A stretch of DNA of 44,081 bases from Pseudobacteriovorax sp. (GCA_013215145.1 JABSRP010000053.1:1-44081), one strand, 5' to 3'. Numbered from the stretch's first letter, positions 2,199-44,059 are shown. Made by a program: numbers and translations. The notes: generated by a model not told the origin, from the letters alone.

Positions 2199-5100
2199 CT
2201 AACCTGCTTCGTCGAATTGATGTAAGTCAGATTTTGTCTTGGAAACCAAATCGCTGATCTCACCCGATAGTTTTGTAGACCGACCTGCTAGCTGCTTAAC
2301 TTCAGAAGCTACTACAGCAAACCCTTTACCAGCTTCCCCGGCTCGTGCAGCTTCAATGGTTGCATTTAAAGCCAATAGGTTCGTTTGACCTGCTACCTTG
2401 ACAATTGATTTCGAGGATTTTTCGACGTTTTCTAACACGTCGCTGACTATTCTTCGCGACTCGATGATGGCTAAATTTTTTTCCGTTTGATCATTGAAAA
2501 TCCCGATCACATAGGCTAGTTCACCATAACCATCTGGTATAGCCTGCAAGGTTCCTGTTGCATAAACTGTTTCATTATCACCACAGGAAACTTTCAAATC
2601 AATTTTCTGACTTTTGCCTTGAATGGCATGTTCCCATTGTTTCTTATCAAAGACTTGGGAAGCGTTTAAAATGGGTTCTGACATGTGATCGCTAGAGATT
2701 TTGAATGTTTCCTTGGCTAATTGGTTGCTTCTCCTCAGTTTTCCAGAAATATCCCACTCCATAACTAGGCTTGAATTTTCAATAGACTCTATTTTCTTGC
2801 TTGATTCAATCGACAAGTTTTTAGTTGATGAAATATTAGCCTGTATCGAAATAAATCTTTCAACGTCACCGTGCTGGTTTAAAATAGGATTAACAGATAA
2901 TGAAATCCAATAGGCTTCCTTACTTTTAGTGTAATTTAGAATCTCCGTATAGAAAGGTTTTTTATTTTCCAAATTCGCTCTAATATCACTAATTGTATTT
3001 TTATCTGTCAAAGGACCTTGGAGTAGAGTTCCAGGCTTATTGCCCTTAGCATCCTCGAAAGTATAACCGGTTAATTTAGTAAAACCAGGATTGACATATT
3101 CAATCTGACCTTTTGGATCTGTTATCACAACACTATTGTCCGTCTCGTTGGCTACGAGCGATAGAATTTCAATTTTCTCTCTCTCTAAAATTTGCTGTGT
3201 TATGTCAACAGCATATTTTACAACTTTGAATGGCTTGCCAGAGGCGTCGTTTATTGGATTATAGGTTGCTTGAATCCAGACCTTTTTTCCATGATTTCCA
3301 ACGCGTTCATATTCCCCCTCTTGGAAATGACCCTCCTTTAGATTATTCCAAAACTCTCTATATTCTCTTGAATTTGCATAATCAGGAGTCGCAAAGATTC
3401 TATGATGCTTGCCTTTGATTTCATCTAGTCTGTACCCCATACAAGCTAAAAAGTTTTCATTGGCATCAAGTATATTTCCCTCGAGGTCAAATTGGATCAC
3501 AGCTTGGGATTTTCCTATCGCTTCAATCTGTCCCTCATAATCAGCACTTTTTAACTTATCATTGGTAATATCTGTTGCGTATTTAACAACTTTAAAGGGT
3601 TTACCTGATGGGTCACAAATAGGATTGTATGTGGCTCGAATCCAAACGCTTTCGCCATTTTTTCTAACCCTTTCAAATTCACCTTCGTGGTAATGCCCAG
3701 TTTTCAATTTTTCCCAAAATTCTTTATATTTCGTAGAATTTGCATAATCTGCTTTAGCAAAGATTTTGTGATGACGTCCTTTAATCTCACCTAATTGGTA
3801 ACCCATGCAAGTTAGAAAATTGTCATTTGCTTCAAGTATATTTCCTTCGAGGTCAAATTGGATCACAGCTTGGGATTTTCCTATCGCTTCAATCTGTCCC
3901 TCATAATCAGCACTTTTTAACTTATCATTGGTAATATCTGTTGCGTATTTAACAACTTTAAAGGGTTTACCTGATGGGTCACAAATAGGATTGTATGTGG
4001 CTCGAATCCAAACGCTTTCGCCATTTTTTCTAACCCTTTCAAATTCACCTTCGTGGTAATGCCCAGTTTTCAATTTTTCCCAAAATTCTTTATATTTCGT
4101 AGAATTTGCATAATCTGCTTTAGCAAAGATTTTGTGATGACGTCCTTTAATCTCACCTAATTGGTAACCCATGCAAGTTAGAAAATTGTCATTTGCTTCA
4201 AGTATATTTCCTTCGAGGTCAAATTGGATCACAGCTTGGGATTTTCCTATCGCTTCAATCTGTCCCTCATAATCAGCACTTTTTAACTTATCATTGGTAA
4301 TATCTGTTGCGTATTTAACAACTTTAAAGGGTTTACCTGATGGGTCACAAATAGGATTGTATGTGGCTCGAATCCAAACGCTTTCGCCATTTTTTCTAAC
4401 CCTTTCAAATTCACCTTCGTGGTAATGCCCAGTTTTCAATTTTTCCCAAAATTCTTTATATTTCGTAGAATTTGCATAATCTGCTTTAGCAAAGATTTTG
4501 TGATGACGTCCTTTAATCTCACCTAATTGGTAACCCATGCAAGTTAGAAAATTGTCATTTGCTTCAAGTATATTTCCTTCGAGGTCAAATTGGATCACAG
4601 CTTGGGATTTTCCTATCGCTTCAATCTGTCCCTCATAATCAGCACTTTTTAACTTATCATTGGTAATATCTGTTGCGTATTTAACAACTTTAAAGGGTTT
4701 ACCTGATGGGTCACAAATAGGATTGTATGTGGCTCGAATCCAAACGCTTTCGCCATTTTTTCTAACCCTTTCAAATTCACCTTCGTGGTAATGCCCAGTT
4801 TTCAATTTTTCCCAAAATTCTTTATATTTCCTAGAGTTTGCATAATCCGCTTTAGCAAAGATTTTGTGATGACGTCCTTTAATCTCATCTAATTGGTAAC
4901 CCATGCAAGTTAAAAAATTGTCATTTGCTTCAAGTATATTGCCTTCGAGATCAAATTGAATCACAGCCTGAGATTTTCCAATGGCCTCGATTTGCCCTTC
5001 GTTGTCTGCCCGACGTTTTTTTTCCTCGGTGATATCAGTCGCATATTTTACTACCTTGTAAGGCTTTCCGGAGGCATCTTTGATGGGGTTATAGGTTGCC

Positions 5101-5756
5101 TGTATCCAAATGCTTTCGCCATTTTTACCGACTCGTTCAAATTCTCCTTCGTAATAGGTACCTGATTTGAGATTACGCCAAAAATCTTGATACTCTGGAG
5201 ATCTAGCATAGTCTGGTTTTGCAAAGATTTTATGATGCTTACCCTTTATTTCGTCAATTGTAAAACCTACGGTCTTCAAAAAATTCTCGTTTGCATCCAA
5301 GATAATTCCATCAAGATTAAATTGAATCACTGCCTGAGACTTTCCTATAGCCTGGATTTGTCCCTCGAAATCGGCATTTTGCATCTTGTTTTTTGTAATG
5401 TCAGTAGCAATTTTTACAATCTTGTAAGGCTTCCCCAAATCGTCAAAAATAGGGTTATAACTAGCTCGAATCCAAACGCTTTGACCACTTTTTGAAAAGC
5501 GCTCAAACTCTCCTTCTTGGTATTTCCCGCTTTTTAGAATTTTCCAGAAGTTTTTATATTCTTCTGAATTGCGGTATTTTTCATTAACAAACATACTATG
5601 ATGCTTCCCTTTTATCTCCTCTAAGCTGAATTCAACAGTTGTCAAAAAGTTCTCGTTCGCATCTAAAATATTCCCATCTAAATCAAACTGGATGACAGCA
5701 GACGATTTGATAACTGCTTCAAGAATTGCCTTAATATCATTTGAATTAAAATCCAT
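2199..5756 (-). CDS. Soluble chemoreceptor-like protein of 1185 aa. It has at least 9 tandem PAS domains, 7 of them a 122-aa unit, followed by a short MCP signalling-domain fragment
   Basis: A 122-aa PAS unit (…[22 protein letters not shown]…GRHHKIF…[28 protein letters not shown]) recurs 7 times and is followed by 2 further PAS-like modules. The C-terminus contains the canonical MCP hairpin-tip motif [35 protein letters not shown]. No hydrophobic TM segment is present. Confidence 0.85.
3481..4945. repeat. 366-bp tandem repeat array inside the PAS-MCP gene. Four units begin at 3481, 3847, 4213 and 4579, and 3481-~4827 is 100% identical between units
   Basis: Direct comparison of the four stretches shows identical nucleotides over about 1.35 kb. 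The flanking units, down to ~3230 and up to ~5700, are progressively diverged copies of the same 366-bp/122-aa PAS module. Confidence 0.9.
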
Positions 5757-9899: not shown

Positions 9900-10934
9900 T
9901 TAGTTTCTACTGAAGAACTCATCAAAGACCTCATCACTCCAGTAAGCGATGCCTTCGGCTTGATTGGGGGAGTGCCATGATTCTTCGGATTTATGGCTTG
10001 GATTGACACAAGCTACGGCTAGAAATAGTAGGCAGAGTGAGGCAAGTAAAAGACTTCGGTTGTTTGGACGTGTGTCTTTGAACGCTTCGATACGACTTCT
10101 CAGTTCACTTTTTCCCAGCTGGTGCCCTACAGTCAGCGGATTTAGCGAACCTTGTAAAAGGAGCTGGCAGTTTAATAGGGTAGCAGCGTATTTCTTACGT
10201 ATTGTTTTGCCCAAGCAAACCTGTCGATCGCAGCTTATTTCCATGGATTTGTTTAGTTGTTTAGCTAGAAAAATCAAAAATGGAGAGAACCATAAAACAC
10301 ACTTTAGTACTTGCATATAGGCATTGAGCTGAATATCTCTCCGTTTAATATGGACATTCTCATGCTCTAGGACTAATGCTAGCCCTTCGTCATCTAAACT
10401 CTTCGTCAGTATTTGAGGAATGAAAATTCTTGGACTAAAGACTCCGTACGACATGGGAGATAGGTTTGATTTATGGGTGTATACTGGGATCCCCTTAAAC
10501 TCGAATGCGCAGTGGGATGAAGCCTCTAGCTGTCGCATACGATTAAGGGCAAATACTAATTTCATTAGTAAGATGGATAGAATAATCGCATAGATTCCCC
10601 AGACGTAGATAAACATGGAGATTGTTGTCGGTTTCACTTCCCTTGACAATAACTTTGGCTCCATGATCTCTTCCATTGTACTAAAGATTAGTGAAGGATG
10701 ATCCTTATTTGGGGTTCTGAAGGTTGGGGTCACAAAATCTTCTGTATCAGCTATTTGAGATATCTTCGATGTTGGGAAATCAAAACTAGGAATAAAAATC
10801 AGCAGAGGTAATGCTAGTAAACTGATTCTCAAGTAATGAAACAAACCATGGGCCGCTACTCTCCCTCGCAAGAAAAACCAACCTACACAAATGAGAAAGG
10901 GATAGATAAAGGCATAAAGGAAAAAAATCATCAA
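9900..10934 (-). CDS. BlaR1/MecR1-type M56 family membrane metalloprotease signal transducer. It lacks the C-terminal beta-lactam sensor domain
   Basis: N-terminal TM helices are followed by the M56 signature SPMSYGVFSPRIFIP…LVLEHENVHIKRRD (an HExxH zinc motif) and MEISCDRQV. After a final TM segment only about 40 residues remain. Confidence 0.85.
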   Translation of the reverse strand: MMIFFLYAFIYPFLICVGWFFLRGRVAAHGLFHYLRISLLALPLLIFIPSFDFPTSKISQIADTEDFVTPTFRTPNKDHPSLIFSTMEEIMEPKLLSREVKPTTISMFIYVWGIYAIILSILLMKLVFALNRMRQLEASSHCAFEFKGIPVYTHKSNLSPMSYGVFSPRIFIPQILTKSLDDEGLALVLEHENVHIKRRDIQLNAYMQVLKCVLWFSPFLIFLAKQLNKSMEISCDRQVCLGKTIRKKYAATLLNCQLLLQGSLNPLTVGHQLGKSELRSRIEAFKDTRPNNRSLLLASLCLLFLAVACVNPSHKSEESWHSPNQAEGIAYWSDEVFDEFFSRN

Positions 10935-11302
10935 TCTAACTCACCTAGAAGTTGACGAATGCGCTCGATTTCATCCGATGAAAGCTTCTGATTCTCGATC
11001 AAATTCAATGCAAGATCAAAAGCCTTCCCCTCATAGACATCTTCAATGAGATTTTCGGCTACAGAATTTTGATAGCTAAGACGGTCAATGCGAGCGGTAA
11101 AACGATGCTCTTTCTCTGAATTGTCCTTTTTTAGATAGTTTTTCTTGACAAGATTATTCACTGCAGTTTGTAGCGAAGTATAGGCAGGAGGCGGATCTAG
11201 CATATTCAAGATATCACGAACACTGGCTCGATCATGATCCCAAAAGAGCTTCATAATTTTTAATTCATGGTCCGTAAGATTTTTATTTATGGGGCGACTC
11301 AT
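10931..11302 (-). CDS. BlaI/MecI/CopY-family winged-helix transcriptional repressor
   Basis: The protein is 123 aa. Its N-terminus LTDHELKIMKLFWDHDRASVRDILNML…YTSLQTAVNNLVKKNYL fits the penicillinase-repressor fold. Its stop overlaps the start of the M56 gene by 4 nt. Confidence 0.8.
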   Translation of the reverse strand: MSRPINKNLTDHELKIMKLFWDHDRASVRDILNMLDPPPAYTSLQTAVNNLVKKNYLKKDNSEKEHRFTARIDRLSYQNSVAENLIEDVYEGKAFDLALNLIENQKLSSDEIERIRQLLGELD

Positions 11303-29776: not shown

Positions 29777-31405
29777 ATGAGGTCTTATTTACCATCTGGG
29801 ATATTTTTCACCGTCCTAGTTAGTCTGACTCTATCTTGCGGGAGTAAAGATGAGGAAGACGGAGATGTTTCTGCTACGAGTGGAACAGAGTTTAACGAAG
29901 ACGGTTTTCTGGACAGTGGCGTTGGAGTCCTTCGGATCGGAGTCAGTGCCGCCTCCGGAGAAACCGCCACAAGTGGACTTAGAGTTGCCGAACCCACAGA
30001 TCCAAACGAAAAATACTATTTTGGCAAGCGCTCTCTGGGTGGCGGAGCCGATGAACTGACGATTTATATAACAAAAATGGTGCTCAAAGACAGCAGTGCC
30101 AGCGAAGAGGTTCCCATTTTTGTCAACCCAGATGGTAAACCGCTTAGGATTGTGGGAAATCGGGTAGATATGAGCAACTTTTTTACTGAAATTGGATGCT
30201 ATAGCGAGGCAGGAGATGTCTTACCAGATCCATGTCCGTGCGGTGTCGATGTCGACGGTAATATTATCGAACAGGTTGATGCGTTAAATGATGATGGATC
30301 TGTCGCAACTGATCCCGAAACGGGTGAAGTCCTAAAAGCTTGTCCGCTAACGGAAACATCGGACACTGGCGAGCCACCAGTGGTTGAGAAGAATCCTATT
30401 GCGTTTATTAACGTGTCCCAGGTCGGTAGTTTCGATACCTTGAAGGTTAGTTATCGGAATGATGCTTTGGCATCGGGTTGCGTACAGGGGTACGTCCAAA
30501 GAGCTGACGTCCCTGATTCCGACGAAAATGCTCACAATGTGGTTGAGTGGGAGCGTTACTGTACCAAGTCGGCCCAAGGTTCCGATAAAACGGAAGCTGG
30601 TGAAAGCTTTGCAAGATCAACCTTTGCTGACGCGACAGGTACCGCCGAGGGAGAGCTTCAAACCATATATCTGACAGCACAATACACTGGAGAAAATCCT
30701 ACCGCGAATGCAGATTATGAGATCACTGGCGGAATCACTATCACTGAAGATGATTCTAATAGCCCACAGATCACCATGCTTATCGATGTCGGTAGTCTTT
30801 TGCGATTTCATATCGATGACAATATCGAGGGACGTAAGCATAACGAGTTTGAGACATGGAACGGAGCCTTTTTCTATGTAAGACAATTTAGTGCCCAAAA
30901 CTTTGTATTTGTCGGCGAAGCAGGCTCGATTCGTGGGTATACCTTGGAGTTAAATCTAAAAGAACAGAATGAAGATCTCTTGAATACTCCATCGGGAACC
31001 GCAGCTAATCCGTCGGCCTATGATGAGTGCGTTCTTACCAACAACGACTGCTCCTTTGTGGGTAAGGGAAGAATCTCTCTTATTTATGACAAAGACGGCA
31101 GCCCTTTGCTGTTTAACCTGACGACAATCGTTGGTAATTCCTGGGATTTTGCTACGCAAAGCCGAGAGGGAGCCGAAGCTGGACAGGCTATCTCCGCCGA
31201 TGAAAGCCTTGCTGGAACGTATAAGCTTGAGTATGAAAATACAGACGGACAAGGAGATGTGTCGGATACTAAGATATATCAACTGGGTCTTGATGTGGAT
31301 GTTGGTTCAAGTTTTACCTCCTATGGCTATCGATTTATTCAGACTTCTGCCGGAGAAACACGGATGTATAACTGGGGTAAGCTAGTAGGTACGAGAGAGT
31401 ACTAG
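29777..31405 (+). CDS. Large lipoprotein of unknown function (542 aa)
   Basis: Signal peptide with the lipobox LTLSCG. The mature part is Gly/Asp/Thr-rich. No known domain. Confidence 0.6.
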   Translation: MRSYLPSGIFFTVLVSLTLSCGSKDEEDGDVSATSGTEFNEDGFLDSGVGVLRIGVSAASGETATSGLRVAEPTDPNEKYYFGKRSLGGGADELTIYITKMVLKDSSASEEVPIFVNPDGKPLRIVGNRVDMSNFFTEIGCYSEAGDVLPDPCPCGVDVDGNIIEQVDALNDDGSVATDPETGEVLKACPLTETSDTGEPPVVEKNPIAFINVSQVGSFDTLKVSYRNDALASGCVQGYVQRADVPDSDENAHNVVEWERYCTKSAQGSDKTEAGESFARSTFADATGTAEGELQTIYLTAQYTGENPTANADYEITGGITITEDDSNSPQITMLIDVGSLLRFHIDDNIEGRKHNEFETWNGAFFYVRQFSAQNFVFVGEAGSIRGYTLELNLKEQNEDLLNTPSGTAANPSAYDECVLTNNDCSFVGKGRISLIYDKDGSPLLFNLTTIVGNSWDFATQSREGAEAGQAISADESLAGTYKLEYENTDGQGDVSDTKIYQLGLDVDVGSSFTSYGYRFIQTSAGETRMYNWGKLVGTREY

Positions 31406-31950
31406 CGATAGGTCTGTTTTTTAGATGAACACATCAATTATGAATTGATTGCTCCCCATGTGAAGGGGAGCTGCCTCTATTTAAGTTCCTAGATACTATA
31501 ACAAAAAATGATTTCTGCAAAACTTTATTCTATTATATTAAACAGACGTTTCTCGCTTACGTTACTAGACTTAAAAAATCTTGTTCAGAGTGTTAAGTGA
31601 ATTTGACAAAATGTTCATTACCTCACGTAGATTTTTTGACATTTTTCCTGGAATTGTCAAGTTTTTGGGGATGAAATGTCTAAGGTTCAAACAGATTTGG
31701 TTACCAACCATATCATTTAAGGCACATACAGATGGTATATTATCTGCTTTAGAAAAGATACAACTGCCAAGAAAACATGACAATCAACGATTGTAGATAA
31801 AAGAGAGATGTCCAAAATTTCTTTCTAAGAAAGATCATCCTATCTCTTTAGTAATCTGCAGAATTGCTTGAATACGGAAACAAGTGATTGCTGATGATCT
31901 TGAATTTTTGGAACAAAAGTACAACAGACGTTAATTGAAAGGAAACTGTT

Positions 31951-33054
31951 ATGATGATTCGAGCAAAGCACTTATTACTTGTAGTAGGAATTTTAGGAAC
32001 AGCATGTAAATCAGAAAAACAAGATAAAACAAATTTTGATGCTAATGCTGCTGATGTAGTGGCTGAGGTTCAAGATCCAAATGCCGTTGATCCGGCCGTT
32101 GAAGATGTTAGCGAATCCGTTCAAGAGGCTGATGCTATCATCCCAGGACAGATAGAACTTGTAGATGATTTTAGTCCATTCTCCGAACAAATTGCTGCCA
32201 CGGTTGCACAAGTGTCTGCAGATATAGATGGGAAAGATGTCGCCTACACTCTTGAATTTGATGAAGATGAGTTGGACGACGATGAAGATAACCTTTTCAG
32301 CCTATACTTTACGAGTTTAGTCCCATTCGCAATGACAACTACCGATCAACTAGCGGTGACAGCAAGTACCTGTATGAAGGATGCGCTAGATCCTACGGCG
32401 AAAGCAAAAGTAAACGGAGGATTAGTCTACATACAGCAGGAAGAGACGTCCTATCCTGAGGAATGCACCCAAATTGTGATTAAAGAAACTTTAGATAAAC
32501 TAGGCGAAGTTGCTGGTAATCAGATTATAGAAGTCGAAGTCAAACGAAGCATGCAGAAATTTATCGAGTGTGAAAACGCTATTGAAGTTATACCCGGAAT
32601 GAAGGTAGCTGAGATTGATGGGCTTTGCGGTCGCGTCAAAAACGAGACTCAGGTCTTTACTAGGCAGGTAAATCGTTTTGAAGTAACTCCTGAGGGTGTC
32701 ATCATCCAATCTCTCAGTTCCGATACATATACCCAAGTTATTGTGGGTACTGCAGATAATACATGTAAGAAAGCCTTTGTTGAGGATAGTACTAACATCG
32801 TAGATTGCAAGACGATCGAAACTATCGAGCGCGATGGTGTTATCACAGAAAAGATCATCAGAAATTGGGCCAATATAGAGGGTGTGTCTCAAGTTCTTCT
32901 ACCACAGTCAGGTATTTTAACTATGGAAGTTAACAATGTGACTGCAGAAATCGAGTTTGTTGGTGATGATTCCTACGATTTAGAGGTGGAAGGCGATGGT
33001 TTCGATGAAGAATTAGAAGTTTCCAATGAATTCCTTGCCGAATTAAACGGCTAG
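31951..33054 (+). CDS. Acidic lipoprotein of unknown function (367 aa)
   Basis: Signal peptide with the lipobox LGTAC. The content is strongly acidic. Confidence 0.6.
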   Translation: MMIRAKHLLLVVGILGTACKSEKQDKTNFDANAADVVAEVQDPNAVDPAVEDVSESVQEADAIIPGQIELVDDFSPFSEQIAATVAQVSADIDGKDVAYTLEFDEDELDDDEDNLFSLYFTSLVPFAMTTTDQLAVTASTCMKDALDPTAKAKVNGGLVYIQQEETSYPEECTQIVIKETLDKLGEVAGNQIIEVEVKRSMQKFIECENAIEVIPGMKVAEIDGLCGRVKNETQVFTRQVNRFEVTPEGVIIQSLSSDTYTQVIVGTADNTCKKAFVEDSTNIVDCKTIETIERDGVITEKIIRNWANIEGVSQVLLPQSGILTMEVNNVTAEIEFVGDDSYDLEVEGDGFDEELEVSNEFLAELNG

Positions 33055-33513
33055 ATTCCGCATAAAGGTGGTCTGCCTGAAGGGTAGACCACAGCTTATT
33101 CGACCTTATGTCTCTTACATAGCATCCACCCTTCAAAAACCGAGTCTATCTTCCCCTTTTCCGATTAAGAATGAATCCCCAGAAAATGAAACCCTTAGAG
33201 CTTTGATGGGCCGAGCGAAACTGTGTTTTTTAATATAGCCATATTGGCGTAAATGAAAAAAAATGCAATATCTCGTGTTATTTAGCGTCCTATTAGAGAC
33301 AGTTCGCATAAATATAGATAGCAGCGATCTCAAATCTTGGAAGACATACTATAGGTATTCGTTTGGCAGTACCGCTTAGCATCAGAACTTTGATGAGCTG
33401 ATAAAGTATGAAGATAGTTTTTCGGCTGTGTTTATAGGTGTTTGGCGCAATATAAGGGATCCGATTTCATGGTTTGATCCCCGTGTCCGAGATGAGGGAA
33501 AAGGAGAGTTATC

Positions 33514-34122
33514 GTGGACTTTTTGAGTTTAGCGTTTCGCTTACCAAGCTTGCCTTTCTCAATTCTGTTTGGACTTTCGATTCTCTATTGGGTGGGTACC
33601 ATAGTCGGGTTTTTCGACTTAGATGGTTTGGACCTAGATTTCGAGATAGGCGACGTTTCAGCTTTGGGTAAGGTCTTAGACCTATTTGGAATTGGTAGAG
33701 TTCCAAGCTCTATTTGGCTGAGCTTTTTTGCCTTAAGCGCCCTAATCTTATCTATAAACCTTAATCACCTTGCCGATTCAGTGATTCCCACCTGGACCGA
33801 TAGCATACGGCTAGTGGTATTTGGTATTCCGGTAGTGATTGTTTCCTCGTTGTTGGCAAGGCTACTGTCATCGCCTTTTGCTCCTCTCTTTCGAGGATTA
33901 AATCGACAAAAGGTGTTTTCGATTGAAGGAAAGACTGTACATGTCACTTCGAGCTCGGTGGACCAGAGTTTTGGAATAGCAGAGTTTCGTGATGGCGGCT
34001 CGCCCATTATATTAGATGTCCGCAGCATTGATGAGGAAACCCTTGTGAAGGATGATTTGGCTGTTGTGGTACGCCATGACAAAAAAAATAACACCTATTA
34101 CATTCATAAACATATTACTTAG
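33514..34122 (+). CDS. YqiJ/NfeD-like inner-membrane protein (the short NfeD form with a C-terminal OB-fold). It is the flotillin partner
   Basis: N-terminal TM helices, a FGIGRVP motif, and a C-terminal beta-rich segment (GSPIILDVRSIDEETLVKDDLAVVV). Both match the E. coli YqiJ layout. GTG start with AAGGAGAG 5 nt upstream. It is followed 16 nt later by a flotillin gene, as in yqiJ-yqiK. Confidence 0.65.
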   Translation: MDFLSLAFRLPSLPFSILFGLSILYWVGTIVGFFDLDGLDLDFEIGDVSALGKVLDLFGIGRVPSSIWLSFFALSALILSINLNHLADSVIPTWTDSIRLVVFGIPVVIVSSLLARLLSSPFAPLFRGLNRQKVFSIEGKTVHVTSSSVDQSFGIAEFRDGGSPIILDVRSIDEETLVKDDLAVVVRHDKKNNTYYIHKHIT

Positions 34123-34137
34123 TAGAAGGTTTCAGGT

Positions 34138-36132
34138 ATGGAAAATGTTTTTATTAATTCAGGAATTGTCATTTTTGCAAGTGTCAGCTTGTTTATCTTG
34201 GGAATCGTATTTTTCATAACGCGTTTCCTGAGAAAGGTTGAACCAGGAAAAGCTCTGATTATTATTAATCCGTTCAAAAAGAATATGGCTGTTAGCTTCA
34301 CAGGAGGCGTCGTAATCCCTGTCATCCATCGTGCTGAGGTTATGGATATTTCGACCAAACAAGTTGTGGTTGAAAGGCGTGGAAAAGATGGTCTGATATG
34401 CAAAGATAATATTAGAGCTGATATTTCAGTTAACTTCTATATCAGAGTCAATAATACAGTAGAAGACGTGCGCAACGTTGCTCAAAGTATTGGAGTTGAT
34501 CGAGCCTCCCAGAAAGAAACCTTGGATGAACTATTTCAGGCCAAATTTTCGGAAGCTTTGAAAACAGTAGGCAAGAAGACCGATTTCGAAGAGCTTTTTC
34601 AGGAACGCGCTTTGTTCAAAGAAAAAATTGTTCAGGAGATAGGGCAAAACCTCAATGGCTACAGTCTGGAAGATACAGCCATTGACTATCTCGAACAAAC
34701 AGGTCTCGAATTTTTTGAGCCAAACAACATTCAAGATGCAGCCGGTATAAAAAAGATTATTGATATCACATTAGAGTTGAAAGAGCAGAAAGAAAAGCGT
34801 GAAACGGAAGCAACGGAGCGCATTCTTGAGCTAGACAGACAGAGGGCTGAGGCTAAGGCGCGTCAGGAAGCCGAAATCGCCATTCTCCAGGCGAGAGAAA
34901 ATGCTGAGCAGGAAAAAATCATCCAAGAAGAAAGGCAAAAAGCCGAACTTGCAAAGATCCGCGTTGACGAGGAATTACGAATTGCAGCGGAAAATATGGA
35001 ACGTCAGGTTGAAGTTGCTAAAAAAAGTAAGGAACGCACGGTTGCTGTTGAGACAGAGCGAGTTGAAAAAGAACGAGATCTTGAAAAGACTGACCGCGAA
35101 AAACTAGTTGCGCTTGCAGATATCGAAAAAGTGAGAGCGGTTGAAGATCAGAAGAAAACGATTCAAGAAATCATTAGACAGCGTGTGGCACTAGAACGAT
35201 CAGTGGCTGAGGAAGAAGAAAAGACTAAGGATACGGTAGCATTGGCTACTGCTAACAGAAACAAAACAGTACAATTAACAGCGGCGGAGGCCAATGCTGA
35301 AGAAAAGTTAGTAACCGAAATTAAATCTGCTGAAGCCAAAGAAAAAGCAGCAAAATATGCAGCTAATGAAATGGCAATACGCGCGGAAGCTGAGCTTGCT
35401 ACATCTAATCAGATCGCCGACGCAAAAAAAATCCTAGCCGAAGGGATCATTGCCGAATCTGCTGCGGTAGGTTTGTCTGAGGTGAAAGTAAAAGAAGCTG
35501 ATGCTGATGCTGTTCGGAAGCTGGGAGAGGCCGAAGCTCATGCCTTGACCTTCAAGTCTAGAGCTGAAGCCGAGGCCATTCGGGAAAAAGGAACCTCTGA
35601 AGCGCAAATTATTGCTGATAAGGCCAAGGCTATGCATGATCTAGACGAGGTGGGAAGAGAGCACGAAGAGTTTAAAGCCAGGCTTAATGTCCAGCAAGAA
35701 CTGGCTCTTGAAAAATTGACTGTTAGTCGCGATATAGCAAAAAATAATGCTCAGGTGATTAGTAAGGCTCTAGAAAATGCAAAGATTGACATCGTAGGAG
35801 GTGACCAAATATTCTTCGATAAACTAATTTCGGCAGTGAGTAATAGCAAGTCAATTGAAGCTCGTTTTCCAGAAGATGGAGTCTTAAATCAGGTCAAGGA
35901 TGTTTTTTTATCTGATGGAAACGGTGAGTTGATGACCAAGCTAAGAGGAGTCATTGATACTCTTGGTGTTGGGTCAAAAGCAATGAAAGATTATAGTATC
36001 GCGGGACTACTTAATAAATTGCATAGTGAGACAAAGGATTCGTCGATTCAGGGTGTTATATCTGGACTTCTTAAAGATGCTGAGTCCGCTGGGATCAATG
36101 ATCAGTCTTCGCAAATATTGTTTAATAAATAG
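34138..36132 (+). CDS. Flotillin-family SPFH/band-7 protein (664 aa, YqiK-like)
   Basis: An N-terminal TM helix is followed by an SPFH domain and a long Glu/Ala/Lys/Arg-rich coiled-coil (the flotillin-type EA repeat region). It is tightly linked to the NfeD-like gene upstream. Confidence 0.8.
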   Translation: MENVFINSGIVIFASVSLFILGIVFFITRFLRKVEPGKALIIINPFKKNMAVSFTGGVVIPVIHRAEVMDISTKQVVVERRGKDGLICKDNIRADISVNFYIRVNNTVEDVRNVAQSIGVDRASQKETLDELFQAKFSEALKTVGKKTDFEELFQERALFKEKIVQEIGQNLNGYSLEDTAIDYLEQTGLEFFEPNNIQDAAGIKKIIDITLELKEQKEKRETEATERILELDRQRAEAKARQEAEIAILQARENAEQEKIIQEERQKAELAKIRVDEELRIAAENMERQVEVAKKSKERTVAVETERVEKERDLEKTDREKLVALADIEKVRAVEDQKKTIQEIIRQRVALERSVAEEEEKTKDTVALATANRNKTVQLTAAEANAEEKLVTEIKSAEAKEKAAKYAANEMAIRAEAELATSNQIADAKKILAEGIIAESAAVGLSEVKVKEADADAVRKLGEAEAHALTFKSRAEAEAIREKGTSEAQIIADKAKAMHDLDEVGREHEEFKARLNVQQELALEKLTVSRDIAKNNAQVISKALENAKIDIVGGDQIFFDKLISAVSNSKSIEARFPEDGVLNQVKDVFLSDGNGELMTKLRGVIDTLGVGSKAMKDYSIAGLLNKLHSETKDSSIQGVISGLLKDAESAGINDQSSQILFNK

Positions 36133-36140
36133 GTATAGTA

Positions 36141-39100
36141 GTGACTATCAGTAATACGCTTACAGCTACGGGCGGCAACTTTGATATCATTAGAAAAAGA
36201 CTGATAACACAAAGCAAAGCCCTTGAGACGATACTAACGGATCTCAATCTAAGACGTAAAGATACCTTTGGAACTATCGAAAACAAGATTCTTTCGTCGG
36301 ATCGAGTTAATACACCTATCCCCTGTGTGGCTCGCGATATGGTAGCTCAGGGGGATACGTTACTTATGGCGTTTGAGGTCCATTTTGGATTAAAATCTTC
36401 GGTAAATGTTTCTGATATTTTTAGAACCTATCAATATATAGACGATAGATTTCAAGAGGTCGAAGCGACACTTATTGATGATGAACAGTTCTATCGCGAT
36501 CTTTCCGATTTGACTAAATTCTACAAAGATTGCCGATTTGCTAGATTTTTGAAGAAAAAAACATTTTTGTACATGATCTTTCATGTGGGGCGCGGTAGAG
36601 ATAAAAAAGTCTTCAAATGGGCCATTAATCCCGATGATAAACTAACTTATGTTGATAATAGATCAGATTTTGAAGTCGCTGATCCACCCCAATATAGTTT
36701 TGATTGGGAACGTATCACGCGCGATGATCATGTGTATATTGGTGAACCTCATATTAACGTTTCAGATCGACTGTTTGTTGACTGCTTGGGTGGATCGCTT
36801 ACGATAAGGATCGAGGATAACACCGAAATCGGTCATACGATTCTTCAAGAATCTGTTGATGAAACGGATCAAACCTTAGACGATGCGGTTATCGAATACG
36901 CCGTATTGGATCATATTATTATTCTCAAGATACTTCCCTACCGAGAGCAAGATGCCCGATACTTTATATATAACGATAAAAACGAAACCATTAAAAAGGT
37001 AGAGGATCTAAAAAACTGTGGAATCGCACTGCCTGAAAACGATGGACTGATGTTTCCTAACGGTTATTATCTAAGGAATGGTACTTTCCGTTCGTTTTCG
37101 CTAGAACGAAGCGATATGAAGTTCCAACAGTGTTTAGAAAGCCTGAATGGAGAAGATCTACTTTATGCCTTTCATGACCACGAGATGGGCGAATATATCT
37201 TAATCCAATATAACCGTATTGAAAAAACGGTAGGTCAACCTATTACCTGTCATGGATATGCTATATTTGGTAACGGAAAGATGGTGGTTTTTGGGGCTTC
37301 GCAAGAACCTATGAAGAGTCATAGTATTCAAACATGGAGCACATCGTTTATCGAAGATGCTAGCGTCTTTGAAGCTTCTGATGAATCTTCTATGGCGCGC
37401 ATAGGTAATAAAACATTGGTTGATGGTTTTTCTGACCTGTGGGAGATAACCAATTTAGCTAAAAAAGAAGAAAATACCTTAGCGGAATATAATGAATTAT
37501 TGAGGTTCATCCGAGAGTCTCAGGATAGGCATTATTGGTTTAGTGAAGAAGAGTTTTCCCAAATAAAACAAAAATTAGCTGATCTTCTGTCCACTGCTAC
37601 TTCTGCCGTCGATGAATTTGAAAAGGTGATTAGCGCAAAGAAAAAAAGTCATAAAGATTTTCAAGAGGCTGAGATCAATGTACAAAATCTTATTGATGCC
37701 ATAAAGATAGAGGGATTCGAAACTATTGATCCCTTCATTGAAAAGATCACCGATCTTAGATTGCAATTGGGTGAGGTTCTCTCACTGGCGGAAAATCAGT
37801 TTGCAAATGCCGAAGGGTTGGAAGTTCTTGAGGGACGACTTAAAGCAGAGCTGGATCAGCTAACGAGCTCTTGTAGTCGATTTCTTATGAGCCAAAAAGC
37901 GGTTCAGCCATTTCATGATCGTTTGGAGCAGATCTTATTGTCTATGGAGTCCGTAGAACGCTCAAAAGATCTAGAAAATGTTGATGCTGAAATCGCGAAA
38001 TATACTCTTCACCTAAATACATTAACGGATCTTATAAACGATTTGGCTACTTCCGATCCGAAGGATTCGGTTCAAATCATTGAACAATTATCTCAACTTA
38101 TTGCCGGGTCAAATCAAGTTAAAGCAAAATTCAAATCTATTCGAACCAACCTGCTTCACGAGGAGTTAGGAACCGAGTACCAAGCGCAAATGACTCTTCT
38201 GTCGCAATCGGTTTCTAGTTACCTGGAGCAAGTTGAATCTCTAGAAGATTGTGATAACTTTCTTGATCGAGTTCTCGGCAATCTAGAATCACTAGAGGTT
38301 AAGTTTTCCGAATTTCCAGACTATCTAAATGATCTTGCTGAAAAACGTGATGAATATTTTTCCGTGTTTCAGTCAAAAAGGGTTCAAATACAAGAAGCCA
38401 GCAATAAAAAAATAATGGCAATGATGGACTCTGGAGCGCGTCTTTTGAAAAGTATAAAAAAGCGCTCGATCCACCTCGAAACGTGTCAACAGATTTCTAC
38501 TTTTTTCGTCACCGACAGTATGGTTACCAGATTACAAACAGTTGCTGATGAGATGGCTAAACTAGGTGAGACGGTGAAAGCTGAGGATTTAAGGGGGCAG
38601 CTTAAAAAAATTAGGCAAGATGCCTTAAGGCAGCTGAAAGATAAACAGGATTTATTTCAACTTGGTGAAAATATCATAACTTTGGGTCAGCATAGTTTTC
38701 AAGTGAGTGACCTGTCGGTGGATCTCTCCATTATTGAGCGTAGCGATGGACCCAATATTCATATATCTAGTACTGATTTTTTTCAGGCTATTCCAGAAGG
38801 AAGTTTGAACTCTTCAAAAACTCTGTCTCAACAAACAGTCGTCAGTGAGACAAAAAAAGTATATCGATCGGTTTATCTCGCTTATTATTATGTGCAGAGT
38901 CTATATGCTGGCGAGAGGCCTTTAAATTTAAGTCAATTGCTCTCTAACTCAAGTAGTCTAGACGGTGTAGAGGATGAAGCCCTCGAAAAAGATATCCTTT
39001 CTTTTATGCAGAGTAGGTTAGACGAAGGCTATGAAAAAGGCGTACACGATAGAGATGGCTATAGAATTATCGGTCGTATACTTCCTATTCTCGCTCATGA

Positions 39101-41078
39101 CCCTGTACAGAGATTTCATCCTGTAACACGAGCGCTAGGATTTTTATTCTCTAAATATGAGGAAAATGACAGTTTAAGCGTCATTCTTAAAAAAATCCAG
39201 TCTTGGTCTAAAATACAAAAACAAAATCTCGCTCGTAATCCAAAAAACGACTATATTGAAGAACTTCGTTGCGAAATCAAAAACTTTCTTTCGGCATCTA
39301 ATTTGGATGATTATGTAGGCTATGATCATAAAGTAGCTCACTACCTAGCACATCAATTTTTGCTACAGGAAGATCACCGGGACCACTATTTTGCTAAAGA
39401 GTCCTACGAATTATATAATGAGTTTACCGAGTGGATCAAGCAAGGTGATCTGAAGGATAAAATCCTTTCACTGGTGGATGGGGTTGATCACTTAGGTGAT
39501 AAAATTGCGATATTATTTGATTGGTTGCAACAATTTCAAAAGACATTTAACAGTGGAAAAGACGACTTTGTACTGGAATCAGTGATTATAGCTTTGGAAT
39601 TACAATTTACGGCAGCAGATAATCAAAATTTCCAGATGAAAAGGCTAGTCAACAGTAGCATATTTAGTGTAGATGGACTCATTGGAACTCACGAAAACCT
39701 TGATCAAGGAAAACTTAATACTTATGTATTTGAATTATTTTCTCAGGTGGAAACCTATTTAGAAGATGGAAGAGACGCGTTTCTAAACTTCCAGATCGAA
39801 AAGCAAAATTTAATCAAACAATATCGGCAATCGTTTAAACTTGATCAGCTGCAACCGAAAATTCTTGGATCGTTTGTTCGCAATCAGTTAATTCAGGAAT
39901 CATACCTGCCAAAAATTGGTGAAAACTTTGCAAAACAAATCGGAAGCTATGGAAATGATAAGCGTGTTGATCTGATGGGTCTGCTCCTTTTGATCTCACC
40001 CCCAGGCTACGGGAAGACCACATTAATGGAATATGTGGCTCAGAGGCTGGGTCTGATATTTTTAAAAATTAACGGCCCAGCGATTGGTCACAGTGTAACA
40101 TCTTTGGACCCACAGGAGGCACCAAATGCGACGGCTCGGCTAGAAATTGAGCGTCTTAACTTTGGTTTCGAACTTGGGAATAATGTTATGATTTATATCG
40201 ATGATATCCAACACTGCCACTCTGAGTTTCTTCAAAAATTTATTTCATTATGTGATGGCCAGAGGAAAATCGAGGGAGTTTGGCAAGGTAGTCCGAAGAC
40301 CTATGACTTTCGAGGTAAGCGTATTGCAGTGGTCATGGCAGGAAACCCATATACCGAGACGGGTGAGGTCTTTCGTATCCCAGATATGTTATCAAACCGA
40401 GCCGATATATATAATTTAGGTGATATGCTAAGTGGTTCGGAGGATGCGTTTCTACGATCTTATATAGAAAACTGCCTTACCTCCCACCCTGTACTTGCGA
40501 AATTGACAAATATTGACCAAACAGAGACTCAAAAGCTCATCGAACTGACGGAAGAAAATCATGAGGACTTAGGGACTCTTGTAAAACGTTCCGTGTCTGA
40601 AGGTCATCAAGACTTAGCCAATATGCTAGTGAAGTGCGTATTCGTACGAAATATTGTTCAGACTGTTAATCAAAGCTACATAGCCTCGGCAGCACAGGAT
40701 GACTCATTTCGGACCGAGCCAGGATTTCTGTTGCAAGGTAGTTATCGGGATATGAATAAAATCATGGGAGGGATTCAACCTGCTATGAATGAGTCGGAAC
40801 TTTTGGATCGTGTGATCGATCATTATCGTTTTGAGTCGCAGTTGCTTACCAGTTCTGCAGAGTTCAATTTTTTACGATTCCTTGAACTCATCGATCGCTT
40901 GGACGATCGAGAGAAAGTCAGAATCGAAGAGATACGTGGCGAGTTTAGAAAAACTCAACGTCTATCTTCTGCAGGCAAAGATGGAATAGGGAATATTATA
41001 GGCCAATTGGATCAATTTAACGTAAAATTTGATGAACTAGTTAACGTCTATCGCAGTCGGATAAAACAACATGACTGA
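36141..41078 (+). CDS. Giant 1645-aa protein with a C-terminal MoxR/AAA_5-type AAA+ ATPase module. The N-terminal ~1270 residues have no recognisable domains
   Basis: Walker A is LLLISPPGYGKTTLMEY (aa ~1285). Walker B is VMIYIDDIQH. Sensor-1 is VVMAGNPY. The central region is long and helical, coiled-coil-like. GTG start 8 nt after the flotillin stop. Confidence 0.7.
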   Translation: MTISNTLTATGGNFDIIRKRLITQSKALETILTDLNLRRKDTFGTIENKILSSDRVNTPIPCVARDMVAQGDTLLMAFEVHFGLKSSVNVSDIFRTYQYIDDRFQEVEATLIDDEQFYRDLSDLTKFYKDCRFARFLKKKTFLYMIFHVGRGRDKKVFKWAINPDDKLTYVDNRSDFEVADPPQYSFDWERITRDDHVYIGEPHINVSDRLFVDCLGGSLTIRIEDNTEIGHTILQESVDETDQTLDDAVIEYAVLDHIIILKILPYREQDARYFIYNDKNETIKKVEDLKNCGIALPENDGLMFPNGYYLRNGTFRSFSLERSDMKFQQCLESLNGEDLLYAFHDHEMGEYILIQYNRIEKTVGQPITCHGYAIFGNGKMVVFGASQEPMKSHSIQTWSTSFIEDASVFEASDESSMARIGNKTLVDGFSDLWEITNLAKKEENTLAEYNELLRFIRESQDRHYWFSEEEFSQIKQKLADLLSTATSAVDEFEKVISAKKKSHKDFQEAEINVQNLIDAIKIEGFETIDPFIEKITDLRLQLGEVLSLAENQFANAEGLEVLEGRLKAELDQLTSSCSRFLMSQKAVQPFHDRLEQILLSMESVERSKDLENVDAEIAKYTLHLNTLTDLINDLATSDPKDSVQIIEQLSQLIAGSNQVKAKFKSIRTNLLHEELGTEYQAQMTLLSQSVSSYLEQVESLEDCDNFLDRVLGNLESLEVKFSEFPDYLNDLAEKRDEYFSVFQSKRVQIQEASNKKIMAMMDSGARLLKSIKKRSIHLETCQQISTFFVTDSMVTRLQTVADEMAKLGETVKAEDLRGQLKKIRQDALRQLKDKQDLFQLGENIITLGQHSFQVSDLSVDLSIIERSDGPNIHISSTDFFQAIPEGSLNSSKTLSQQTVVSETKKVYRSVYLAYYYVQSLYAGERPLNLSQLLSNSSSLDGVEDEALEKDILSFMQSRLDEGYEKGVHDRDGYRIIGRILPILAHDPVQRFHPVTRALGFLFSKYEENDSLSVILKKIQSWSKIQKQNLARNPKNDYIEELRCEIKNFLSASNLDDYVGYDHKVAHYLAHQFLLQEDHRDHYFAKESYELYNEFTEWIKQGDLKDKILSLVDGVDHLGDKIAILFDWLQQFQKTFNSGKDDFVLESVIIALELQFTAADNQNFQMKRLVNSSIFSVDGLIGTHENLDQGKLNTYVFELFSQVETYLEDGRDAFLNFQIEKQNLIKQYRQSFKLDQLQPKILGSFVRNQLIQESYLPKIGENFAKQIGSYGNDKRVDLMGLLLLISPPGYGKTTLMEYVAQRLGLIFLKINGPAIGHSVTSLDPQEAPNATARLEIERLNFGFELGNNVMIYIDDIQHCHSEFLQKFISLCDGQRKIEGVWQGSPKTYDFRGKRIAVVMAGNPYTETGEVFRIPDMLSNRADIYNLGDMLSGSEDAFLRSYIENCLTSHPVLAKLTNIDQTETQKLIELTEENHEDLGTLVKRSVSEGHQDLANMLVKCVFVRNIVQTVNQSYIASAAQDDSFRTEPGFLLQGSYRDMNKIMGGIQPAMNESELLDRVIDHYRFESQLLTSSAEFNFLRFLELIDRLDDREKVRIEEIRGEFRKTQRLSSAGKDGIGNIIGQLDQFNVKFDELVNVYRSRIKQHD

Positions 41079-41826
41079 ACATAACGAGCCCTTCTCCGTC
41101 GTCGAGACACTGAAAATTCTGCTATTACGCAAAGAATTTATTGTTTCAACGGCTCTTTTGGGTTTTTGTCTCAGCTCTGTTCTAGTATTCGGAGAATCGG
41201 CTTTTTTGAGCTTTGCCTTAGTCTCTGTTTTTTTATCTACTGCAATGATTGCAATTTTGAATCTGAAATTTCGTAGAGATATTCTTCTAGGTCGTGCCAT
41301 TGTAGATAAAAGTAGGCTGGCCATAGAGCAGGAAAAAGAGTCATCAATCTACAATAAGATCATCGATGAATTGGAAACTTTTGAGTTGACGGCAAAGATG
41401 ATACGAAAGTCTGTCAAGATAGAGTCTCAGGCACGATCTCAACGTTCCCATTTGCTTAGCTGTTTGGAGAAGAACTTAGTTAAGGGTGAATTAACCTACT
41501 ATCGGTACCTTTCAGCTGCAGATGATGTTTTTGATCACATCACTCATAACCAAGAACAGCTCAAACGATACTATGAGCAGCTGGCAGACCTAGTTCGAGA
41601 TAAAAGTACCGACTTAGGTACGCAACTAGTTCAGCCTATATTCCATGAGATTTCCTTACTTCACAGTAGTTGTGATGAGAGTATCTTAGCTTTATCTCAT
41701 CTCATTGTTTCGCTGGAAAAGATGAATACAGGAAAGGATGAGTATGAAGTTTCGCTGAAGTTGGAAAGGCTCCGAGAGCTTGCAAACCAAGCACAACGAT
41801 ATGATAAAAAAGATCAGAGTTTCTAA
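41071..41826 (+). CDS. Membrane protein of 251 aa with two N-terminal TM helices and a C-terminal coiled-coil. It is translationally coupled to the giant ATPase gene
   Basis: The ATG at 41071 overlaps the upstream stop by 8 nt. Two hydrophobic helices span about aa 25-75. The remainder is helical with heptad-like repeats. Confidence 0.6.
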   Translation: MTEHNEPFSVVETLKILLLRKEFIVSTALLGFCLSSVLVFGESAFLSFALVSVFLSTAMIAILNLKFRRDILLGRAIVDKSRLAIEQEKESSIYNKIIDELETFELTAKMIRKSVKIESQARSQRSHLLSCLEKNLVKGELTYYRYLSAADDVFDHITHNQEQLKRYYEQLADLVRDKSTDLGTQLVQPIFHEISLLHSSCDESILALSHLIVSLEKMNTGKDEYEVSLKLERLRELANQAQRYDKKDQSF

Positions 41827-41987: not shown

Positions 41988-42437
41988 ATGGCTAAATATA
42001 TCGTAATATTGCTTCTTTTACTTACATTTGAGGTTTCAGCTTCTGAGACTAATCATTTTTGCGGAAAGCTGATTTATGTGGCAACTGCTAGTGACTCCAG
42101 GTCCGACTGGGTCAGCTCTTTGACTCTCGTAAACGATCGGATAGTCGATAATGTTGATACCGAAGAGAATGAGACTTTTTTAAAGGTGACCGACGACCTT
42201 GCCATTCAATCCTTAGAGAATCGACTAGATCTCGATTTCTATTCCTATGGATTTACATCACAGCTATTTTCCGAAAATCCTAAGTCTATCGCAGCCGAAA
42301 ACCTTTTTTTCTGTTTAGATGGTTTCGAGAAGCGAGCGTGGCGAGGTTCTTGGACCGGGTCGTCAATAGAAAAAATTAGAATATGGCGCGATTTTATATT
42401 TGTGGATGAACTTAACTTGATAGATGAATCAAGGTAA
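41988..42437 (+). CDS. Secreted hypothetical protein (149 aa)
   Basis: Signal peptide MAKYIVILLLLLTFEVSASE. GAGAGGAGA RBS. Confidence 0.55.
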   Translation: MAKYIVILLLLLTFEVSASETNHFCGKLIYVATASDSRSDWVSSLTLVNDRIVDNVDTEENETFLKVTDDLAIQSLENRLDLDFYSYGFTSQLFSENPKSIAAENLFFCLDGFEKRAWRGSWTGSSIEKIRIWRDFIFVDELNLIDESR

Positions 42438-42483
42438 GTTCATCGATCGCTTAGCTAGTTTTGTGAGCTAAAAATTCTTGACT

Positions 42484-42843
42484 TTATAGGTCTTTTTCTT
42501 CGCCAGCGCACAATACTTCGCTTTCAGCCTTTCGATAGTAACTGTATATGACGGTGGTTTCTGGTCCGCCATTCACAGAAACTTCTGTTGGCTGCTCGCA
42601 AACTTTATCGTATTTTGATTCATCGCAGGAACTAGCTTGAAATGTACCACCTAACAGTTGGCACTCTTGTGAAAAAGTCGCTGATGATGGGCTTATTTGA
42701 TAACAGCTTTCAAGGTCACTATTGAATTCTACGGTTAAGCAGCTTCCACCAGCTGCAGCCTGGCTGCTATTGTCACTTTTATCTTCTTTTTCTGAACACG
42801 CTGACGCTACAAGCAATAAGCTTGCTACTAAGATTCGCTTCAT
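42484..42843 (-). CDS. Small cysteine-rich secreted protein or lipoprotein (119 aa, 8 Cys)
   Basis: Signal peptide MKRILVASLLLVASAC. 8 Cys in about 100 mature residues. Confidence 0.55.
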   Translation of the reverse strand: MKRILVASLLLVASACSEKEDKSDNSSQAAAGGSCLTVEFNSDLESCYQISPSSATFSQECQLLGGTFQASSCDESKYDKVCEQPTEVSVNGGPETTVIYSYYRKAESEVLCAGEEKDL

Positions 42844-43171
42844 GATTCCCTCTAATTTGTAACGTGCGGTCGCTTATCGGTAAAAAAGATATCTGGCTTG
42901 ATGAAGAATCAAATTAGCCTTTGATTATCGTTAGTAATGAACGCCAATTTTTTTTGATCGTCTCTACCTCGTGACCTCTGTCTGCGGGATCATGATTTAA
43001 AGCCGATTCACCGGAAAATAGTCATCTTAATTAGAAGTTTATCGAATTTTGAGCGCCAATCCTGTGGGGCACAGAAATTGCTGTCCTTAGACCAAGTATT
43101 TTAGTTTCGACAGGACGTTGATCCTAATTCTTTGACAGAATTATCATTATAAACCACTAGTTGAGGTCAAA

Positions 43172-44059
43172 ATGCCCCGTAAAATCAAGATTCATCAGGT
43201 GCCATTTGGTATGCCAATATCCATATATAAGCGATCATTTTCTATGCTTCTGTCAAATTTTTTGGTACTTGGATTGACTGGCTTCGGTCTTATGATTTTC
43301 TTAACCGGACTCTCCCTCCTAGGTCCCTTGGCCTTGATCGGAATGATGATTGCTCCGTTTTTATATCTAGGGTTTCTTAAGTTATGTCGTGCGATTGAAG
43401 ATGGATCGGATCTAAGTTCAGATACGTTTTTCTCAGTATTTAGCCAATGGAAGCCGATTTTAGGTATTTCCTTGATTCAGTTCGTGCTCTATTTAGTCGT
43501 TGGTGCGATCTTTATAGCCATATTTTTTACAGGAGCAATGGGAGACATTTTTCCGCTAAATATGTTTACCGAGATGATGTCAAACCCAGATGTCTTGACA
43601 GGAAAGGTAGATGAAGCGGAGATGCAATCACTGGTAGAAAAACACTTAGAGCAGATGCCTGAACCGGATGTTGATGCTATAATTGGTTCTGTAATCAAGT
43701 CTATGGCGTTTTTACTTCCTGTTTCGATCATCCAGTGTTTGCTAATTCTAGGGACTCTGTTTTTAGGTGGTCAGCTGATTACTCAAGATGAATCGAGCTT
43801 TTCGGAAGGGATGAAAGCTGGTCTAATGGGTATTATCAAAAATATTCCATTTTTGATTTCGTTAGTGTTCTTTAGTTTTGTTTTTTCACTTTTAGCCTTT
43901 ATCATTACTCTTCCCATCACGATTTTCACCTTTGGGATTGGTACTTTGTTGGTTATGCCGATCTATATGACCATTATAGGCTGTGTCATATACTTTACTT
44001 ACAAAGTGTATTGCCAACCCGGAAACCCAACTTCCCGCCAATCTCTTGACATAGATTAA
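43172..44059 (+). CDS. Polytopic inner-membrane protein of unknown function (295 aa)
   Basis: 6 or more hydrophobic helices. RBS GAGGT. No domain recognised. Confidence 0.55.
   Translation: MPRKIKIHQVPFGMPISIYKRSFSMLLSNFLVLGLTGFGLMIFLTGLSLLGPLALIGMMIAPFLYLGFLKLCRAIEDGSDLSSDTFFSVFSQWKPILGISLIQFVLYLVVGAIFIAIFFTGAMGDIFPLNMFTEMMSNPDVLTGKVDEAEMQSLVEKHLEQMPEPDVDAIIGSVIKSMAFLLPVSIIQCLLILGTLFLGGQLITQDESSFSEGMKAGLMGIIKNIPFLISLVFFSFVFSLLAFIITLPITIFTFGIGTLLVMPIYMTIIGCVIYFTYKVYCQPGNPTSRQSLDID

Follow-up and report, generated by a model that had tools for sequence, protein, structure and literature searches.

We analyzed a 44,081-nucleotide (nt) stretch of Pseudobacteriovorax sp. DNA (GCA_013215145.1 JABSRP010000053.1:1-44081; hereafter the window, with positions counted from its first letter) and found that four plus-strand open reading frames (ORFs) at 33514-41826, here called g1 to g4, encode a YqiJ/YuaF-type membrane protein, a YqiK-type flotillin, a giant MoxR-type AAA+ ATPase and a small membrane protein. 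The first three of these constitute a predicted operon, YqiJ-flotillin-ATPase, that is conserved across many bacterial phyla. We put at roughly even odds the proposal that the locus belongs to a conserved module for membrane maintenance or envelope stress, in which g3 would be the ATP-driven partner of a flotillin scaffold. The core triad is already described in the literature, and the window adds to it one divergent member and a clade-specific fourth gene.

Conservation of the YqiJ-flotillin-ATPase triad

Scanning one genome per species with a degenerate pattern, we found at least 597 relatives of g3 and kept the best 80 with 10-kb flanks; simple ORF calls in these loci were searched first with the window proteins, then with profiles of their families. 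The 80 loci come from at least seven phyla and include Bacteroidota, Planctomycetota, Verrucomicrobiota, Lentisphaerota/Kiritimatiellota, Myxococcota, Desulfobacterota, Clostridia, Nocardiopsis (Actinomycetota) and Gammaproteobacteria. Linkage was counted in the 67 of the best 80 loci that have ≥3.5 kb of sequence upstream of the ATPase. In 65/67 loci a flotillin gene lies upstream of the ATPase and shares its strand in every case (gap ≤150 nt in 36/65), and 60/67 have a YqiJ-like gene upstream of the flotillin. Homologues of g3 are thus not routinely found apart from flotillin and NfeD-type neighbors, and the coupling that the preliminary description of this locus had proposed from the sequence stands. 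The pairwise-identity matrices of flotillin and ATPase were also correlated (r = 0.88; Mantel 0/999), which argues that the two have been inherited as a unit.

Within the window, our ORF calls reproduced the four same-strand genes at the coordinates first given for them. The spacing was likewise as first described for g2-g3 (8 nt) and for g3-g4 (an 8-nt overlap, with the ATG of g4 lying inside the last codons of g3, …CAT GAC TGA), and the distance from g1 to g2 is 15 nt rather than the 16 nt originally reported. An identical copy with the same gene calls is present on an ENA metagenome scaffold (L084). Since all four ORFs have relatives (those of g1, g2 and g3 in 60-80 loci, that of g4 accompanying the closest relative of g3) and different phyla share the gene order g1-g2-g3, the locus is beyond chance. 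Judged by spacing, the four genes are probably co-transcribed. A sigma-70 promoter scan of the upstream region gave nothing above shuffled background, and a terminator scan of the locus did no better than shuffled sequence; the promoter is presumed to lie in the upstream intergenic region since this is the only long non-coding gap that precedes the packed genes. By hydropathy, g1 has three transmembrane (TM) segments, g2 one, g3 none and g4 two.

Table 1. Coordinates of the four genes, of the region upstream and of the domains of g3 (aa, amino acids).
Feature	Window position	Strand	Size or residues	Description
Upstream intergenic region	33055..33513	+	459 nt	Presumed operon promoter site
g1	33514..34122	+	202 aa, GTG start	YqiJ/YuaF-type (short NfeD-like) inner-membrane protein
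g2	34138..36132	+	664 aa, ATG start	YqiK-type flotillin
g3	36141..41078	+	1645 aa, GTG start	Soluble; DUF3686 / 'DNA repair ATPase' family
g3 beta-propeller	36288..37352	+	Residues ~50-404	Core of DUF3686; ~28 strands (AlphaFold)
g3 helical/coiled-coil region	37389..39830	+	Residues ~417-1230	DUF7902 at 586-668
g3 MoxR-type AAA+ module	39981..40691	+	Residues ~1281-1517	GPPGYGKTT, IDDIQH, beta-hairpin before sensor 1, MAGNPYTE, NRAD
g3 C-terminal helical domain	40692..41075	+	Residues ~1518-1645	Helical in model; conserved QGSYRxMN
g4	41071..41826	+	251 aa, ATG start	Two N-terminal TM segments, helical-looking soluble part

The preliminary description had stated that no flotillin operon of this composition was known, and this does not hold: Ravi et al. 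(mSystems 2024, PMC11237479; preprint 2020) described an operon with a CesT/Tir-PspA dyad, a 3-TM YqiJ/YuaF protein, a flotillin, an AAA+ ATPase and sometimes PLD, and noted that abbreviated operons (flotillin, YqiJ/YuaF and sometimes the ATPase) are more widespread. Their table gives for Dokdonia donghaensis (ANH61663.1) the order YqiJ-YuaF -> Band-7+CC+Flotillin -> Betapropeller+CC+AAA-ATPase, where CC is coiled coil, and the flavobacterial loci of our survey reproduce this order with homologues of the window genes. That description takes up a single paragraph with no structure, AAA+ clade assignment or experiment, and it independently infers a role in membrane stress. The window, being devoid of PspA and CesT/Tir, corresponds to the abbreviated form; unlike the published operon it carries a two-TM g4, which is the window's addition.

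The flotillin pair and the giant ATPase

The earlier reading of g1 and g2 as a yqiJ-yqiK-type pair was borne out by profile comparison. With hhalign, the g2 family profile aligned with E. coli YqiK (probability 99.95, E = 2.4e-38, 393 columns, 30% identity) into the coiled coil, and the g1 family profile aligned with E. coli YqiJ (probability 95.6, E = 1.2e-8) in a match that runs through the C-terminal part. In Pfam, g2 matched Band_7 (PF01145) at residues 33-218 with 32.6 bits (cut-off 23.6), and g1 narrowly passed YqiJ_N (PF21001; 24.1 bits against a cut-off of 23). Since only 3/13 members of the g2 family reached Band_7 at E ≤ 0.01, the family is divergent; none of its members matched Flot (PF15975) at the same threshold, and the partner-binding OB-fold domain of NfeD (PF01957), sought at the C-terminus, was matched by 1/13 members of the g1 family (E = 0.0049). 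PDB sequence searches with g1, g2 and their family profiles gave no matches. In g2, an N-terminal hydrophobic segment (residues 9-27) is followed, at residues 221-500, by a long helical region (62% E/A/K/R/Q, 1% P+G), and the C-terminal ~230 residues, to which hhalign gave no alignment with YqiK, form a family-specific region. We assign g1 on these matches as a YqiJ/YuaF-type (short NfeD-like) membrane protein with three hydrophobic segments, and g2 as a divergent YqiK-type flotillin. The pair shares gene order and TM topology with E. coli yqiJ-yqiK, to which it is homologous, and with B. subtilis yuaF-floT. The E. coli locus differs in that no ATPase lies downstream and the sib/ibs genes come after yqiK, and g2 differs from YqiK in being ~110 residues longer and in not matching the Pfam Flot model.

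The g3 family combines DUF3686, DUF7902 and an AAA domain in one protein of ~1600-1900 residues, and g3 contains all three: DUF3686 (PF12458) was matched with 487 bits over its full length (2-448 of 448), DUF7902 (PF25472) with 54 bits and AAA (PF00004) with 28 bits, and AAA_5 (PF07728) scored above its cut-off. The family counts 341 full-length relatives at 36-46% identity, and g3 aligned end to end with 21 of its relatives. AlphaFold models cover residues 1-720 (m45edbfe2331a, pLDDT 80.8) and 1225-1645 (pLDDT 77.6). The first consists of an N-terminal helix, a strand region (residues 50-404) and long helices (417-720), and Foldseek matched the strand region to WD40-type propellers (Elp1, DCAF1, IFT-A, Fbw7, Sec12 and Vps11). 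In model comparison, the nearest neighbors of the AAA+ module were MoxR members, and a beta-hairpin separates its Walker B from sensor 1; the top fold matches of the module were CbbQ and NorQ, and RuvBL, Cdc6 and MCM followed at lower Z. A PDB sequence search with g3 returned only P-loop matches, to p97 and RuvB.

Because the catalytic motifs (Walker A GPPGYGKTT, Walker B IDDIQH, MAGNPYTE and NRAD) are invariant across phyla, the ATPase is probably active. The Walker B motif has an Asp where the catalytic Glu is usual (DD, not DE), and the segment after the second strand, the site of the classical AAA pore loop, contains no aromatic residue. The MoxR chaperones, as represented by CbbQ-CbbO, NorQ-NorD and RavA-ViaA, are proteins of ~270-500 residues; g3 differs from them in its ~1250 additional N-terminal residues (propeller and coiled coil) and its Walker B DD, and identity to them is only 13-14%. 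Other members of the g3 family are larger still, with C-terminal extensions of 80-250 residues that are low-complexity, TPR- or ankyrin-like in 36/79 relatives (e.g. L006, L002, L019 and L035), and with N-terminal TPR, ankyrin or HEAT fusions in some (P0007, P0035 and P0069).

Accessory genes and the lineage-specific g4

The triad is joined by further genes in many relatives. In 15-18 Bacteroidota loci, CesT_Tir_1 (131 aa, 188 bits) and PspA (239 aa, 145 bits) lie directly upstream of the YqiJ gene, and a Hymenobacter plasmid has the order Tir chaperone-PspA-DUF1449-flotillin-ATPase. On the P. fluorescens SBW25 megaplasmid pQBR103 (L086, NC_009444.1 84437-97641), a ten-gene same-strand block (YjfI-PspA-rhomboid-DUF2491-DUF350-DUF1190-glutathionylspermidine-synthase-like-YqiJ-like-SPFH-ATPase) ends in a gene named 'DNA repair ATPase'. 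PspA lies directly downstream of the ATPase in an Anaerohalosphaeraceae genome (L016), and in Vibrio campbellii (L088 12855-14630) a PLD-like gene with a single HKD motif (HHKFAIFD) and a TelA-like gene come after the triad. Members of the PLD-like family also occur in L076, L056 and L072, while L077 and L079 have members of the TelA-like family; these relatives are proteobacterial and verrucomicrobial and include Luteimonas. The accessory genes joining the triad all encode membrane-stress proteins. The genes 3' of g3 in relatives are heterogeneous and mostly unrelated to each other. Between flotillin and ATPase, or just upstream of the ATPase, we also found small variable genes, often in Bacteroidota, that include DMP19-like, DUF3997, AbiEii toxin, DUF559 and DUF4258 members (L015 8603-9689, L035 8085-9383, L011 818-1258 and L019 8407-8730), and the flotillin-ATPase intergenic position appears to be an insertion hotspot.

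The two hydrophobic segments attributed to g4 in the preliminary description were recovered by hydropathy. The gene is not a conserved component of the operon, as no homologue of g4 was detected in the best 80 loci with either the window protein or a three-sequence profile. Downstream of the gene for P0002, the closest g3 relative (46% identity), and separated from it by 6 nt lies a gene for a 255-aa protein with two hydrophobic segments; this protein matches g4 at 32% identity over 130 aa and has the motif KGELTYxRYLSAA in common with it. Beyond g4 itself, an exhaustive search of 1.8 billion representatives returned only the borderline relative P0123 (264 aa, 26% identity, E = 5e-4) and a spurious match to a repeat protein, and a word-indexed search with g4 returned only itself. 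P0123 is encoded immediately upstream of TelA in the row VWA-OmpA-P0123-TelA (L083 2104-6629), which suggests a small uncharacterized two-TM family associated with TelA and would tie the g4 family loosely to the membrane-stress theme. No match to g4 was found in Pfam, NCBIfam, PADLOC or PHROG. We regard g4, from these comparisons, as a real, positionally conserved, fast-evolving and clade-restricted accessory gene. The idea of g4 as an XpaC-like protein or PspA substitute is unsupported, since its Pfam matches at E ≤ 5 included neither XpaC/Halogen_Hydrol nor PspA. Nor do the C-terminal extensions of long g3 relatives represent a fused g4, as they consist of low-complexity, TPR or ankyrin sequence devoid of TM segments.

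Function of the module and competing explanations

Bacterial flotillins and PspA form large membrane-bound polymers, and a protein family that adjoins flotillin and YqiJ in nearly every examined relative is an obvious candidate for the energy source of their assembly and turnover. Pairs of SPFH and NfeD proteins assemble into large structures anchored in the membrane, and ATPases of the MoxR type act as hexameric, chaperone-like remodellers. On our preferred reading, the 3-TM YqiJ-type protein and the YqiK-type flotillin would build an SPFH scaffold that is anchored in the inner membrane and faces the cytoplasm, and g3 would be the soluble, dedicated ATP-driven partner of this scaffold. The propeller and the long coiled-coil arm may dock g3 onto the scaffold or onto clients, and the MoxR-type AAA+ ring, with its fold as modelled and presumably hexameric, would remodel, load or dismantle the flotillin assembly; where a PspA polymer is co-encoded, g3 may act on PspA too. 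Since g3 has no classical aromatic pore loop and its Walker B is DD, it more probably remodels its targets like a MoxR chaperone than threads them as an unfoldase. Translationally coupled to the ATPase, g4 would replace the accessory genes seen elsewhere (PspA/CesT, TelA-like and PLD-like), probably as a lineage-specific membrane adaptor. The 'flotillin-organised ATP-driven machine' of the preliminary description is a reasonable inference.

Several observations weigh against this reading. Neither PspA nor CesT has a homologue in the 44-kb window, and TelA and PLD are absent from it as well, so the stress link of the window comes by association with its relatives. Known MoxR ATPases partner with VWA/MIDAS proteins, and we found no VWA domain in any of the operon's four products or any flanking ORF, so that the expected MoxR partner is missing from the operon. 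The DD of Walker B makes slow or regulatory hydrolysis possible. The 80 loci are the best-scoring ones (35-39% identity), with more distant relatives outside the sample, and two of them (L019 and L023) have 10 kb of upstream DNA and no flotillin; in these two, and in the short contigs L004 and L011, the upstream genes are unrelated or small and selfish-looking. The Mantel correlation may come only from shared phylogeny. In the literature searched, we found no mention of DUF3686 or PF12458 and no experimental work on the system, and a P. aeruginosa SPFH paper contains nothing on such an ATPase.

A close rival, which we consider rather unlikely, is that the locus instead serves caged quality control, with flotillin and YqiJ enclosing or corralling the AAA+ protein in the way of HflK/C-FtsH and the ATPase serving the extraction, unfolding or complex maturation of membrane-protein clients rather than acting on the scaffold. 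The same linkage counts (65/67 and 60/67 loci) speak for it, and HflK/C-FtsH and prohibitin-m-AAA offer, by functional analogy, precedents in which an SPFH scaffold is tied, genetically or physically, to an AAA+ ATPase of the inner membrane. The MoxR relatives CbbQ and NorQ, the top fold matches of g3, are involved in the maturation or repair of the enzymes they serve, and FloA/NfeD of S. aureus are reported to stabilise proteins in the unfolded state (PMC11222466). Yet g3 has no TM segment or anchor, no protease domain and no aromatic pore loop of the classical clade for threading, its AAA+ module is MoxR-type and not FtsH-type, and a hexamer of 1645-residue subunits would presumably be very large for the interior of an SPFH cage. 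The recurrent co-encoding of PspA also fits remodelling of a scaffold better, as a PspA polymer needs control of its assembly.

PspA brings the preferred reading, with g3 as remodeller, near to the ESCRT-III/Vps4 and PspA-PspF systems, to which the likeness is that an AAA+ protein is co-encoded with the ESCRT-III-superfamily polymer PspA in many relatives. This remains an analogy, as g3 belongs to another AAA+ clade than Vps4, has no MIT domain and has no PspA beside it in the window. According to a 2025 review, bacteria appear to lack a Vps4-like ATPase for PspA (PMC7619361), and in B. subtilis PspA depends on the SPFH protein YdjI for its recruitment to the membrane (PMC8581546). A bolder version, which we offer tentatively and hold to be doubtful, is that the g3 family is the missing bacterial ATP-driven remodeller of membrane scaffolds, a functional Vps4 analogue that would assemble or recycle flotillin cages and PspA polymers, with g4-, TelA- and PLD-type genes as interchangeable membrane adaptors or effectors.

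The preliminary description had also named abortive infection or defense as candidate roles, which would give flotillin and YqiJ the part of effector or sensor at the membrane and make the giant ATPase an NTPase switch. Such a role would suit the patchy spread over distant phyla at 35-40% identity, the megaplasmid copies, the small variable inserts (AbiEii, DMP19-like, DUF559 and DUF4258) within or beside the operon in some relatives, the single-HKD PLD/nuclease-like gene in some proteobacteria and the fast evolution of g4. However, PADLOC gave, for the four proteins, only sub-noise hits on g3 and g4 (mad8 16.8 bits, Cas4b 15.8 bits) and no defense gene among the window neighbors, no copy was present in 2.9 million viral contigs, and the recurrent partners (PspA, CesT/YjfI, polyamine-operon genes and TelA) are stress-response genes; we think a defense role improbable.

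A DNA repair ATPase, which is what we take the NCBI name of the g3 family ('DNA repair ATPase') and that of Pfam DUF3686 ('ATPase involved in DNA repair') to assert, is highly improbable: beyond these names, we found a RuvB match in the Walker A region of 18 bits against cut-offs of 27 to ~300 and the lower-Z fold matches to RuvBL, Cdc6 and MCM, but no DNA-binding domain, repair-gene neighbor or publication. The label appears unsupported, and its correction, together with tractable hosts (Vibrio campbellii, P. fluorescens pQBR103, Myxococcus and flavobacteria), makes the question testable.

As for the rest of the window, the genes flanking the operon (29777-33054 and 41988-44059; 542, 367, 149, 119 and 295 aa) had no Pfam, PHROG or PADLOC match. 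A conserved Fe-ADH of the window is ≤61% identical to any database entry, and the source lineage is very poorly sampled. On the minus strand, a 344-aa M56 peptidase of the BlaR1 type (116 bits; within 9900-11302) overlaps by 4 nt an upstream 123-aa ORF (10931-11302), an arrangement that resembles a BlaI/BlaR1-like sensor-repressor pair. Also on the minus strand, 2199-5756 encodes a protein of 1185 aa in which eight PAS domains, an unusually long array, precede a methyl-accepting chemotaxis signalling domain.

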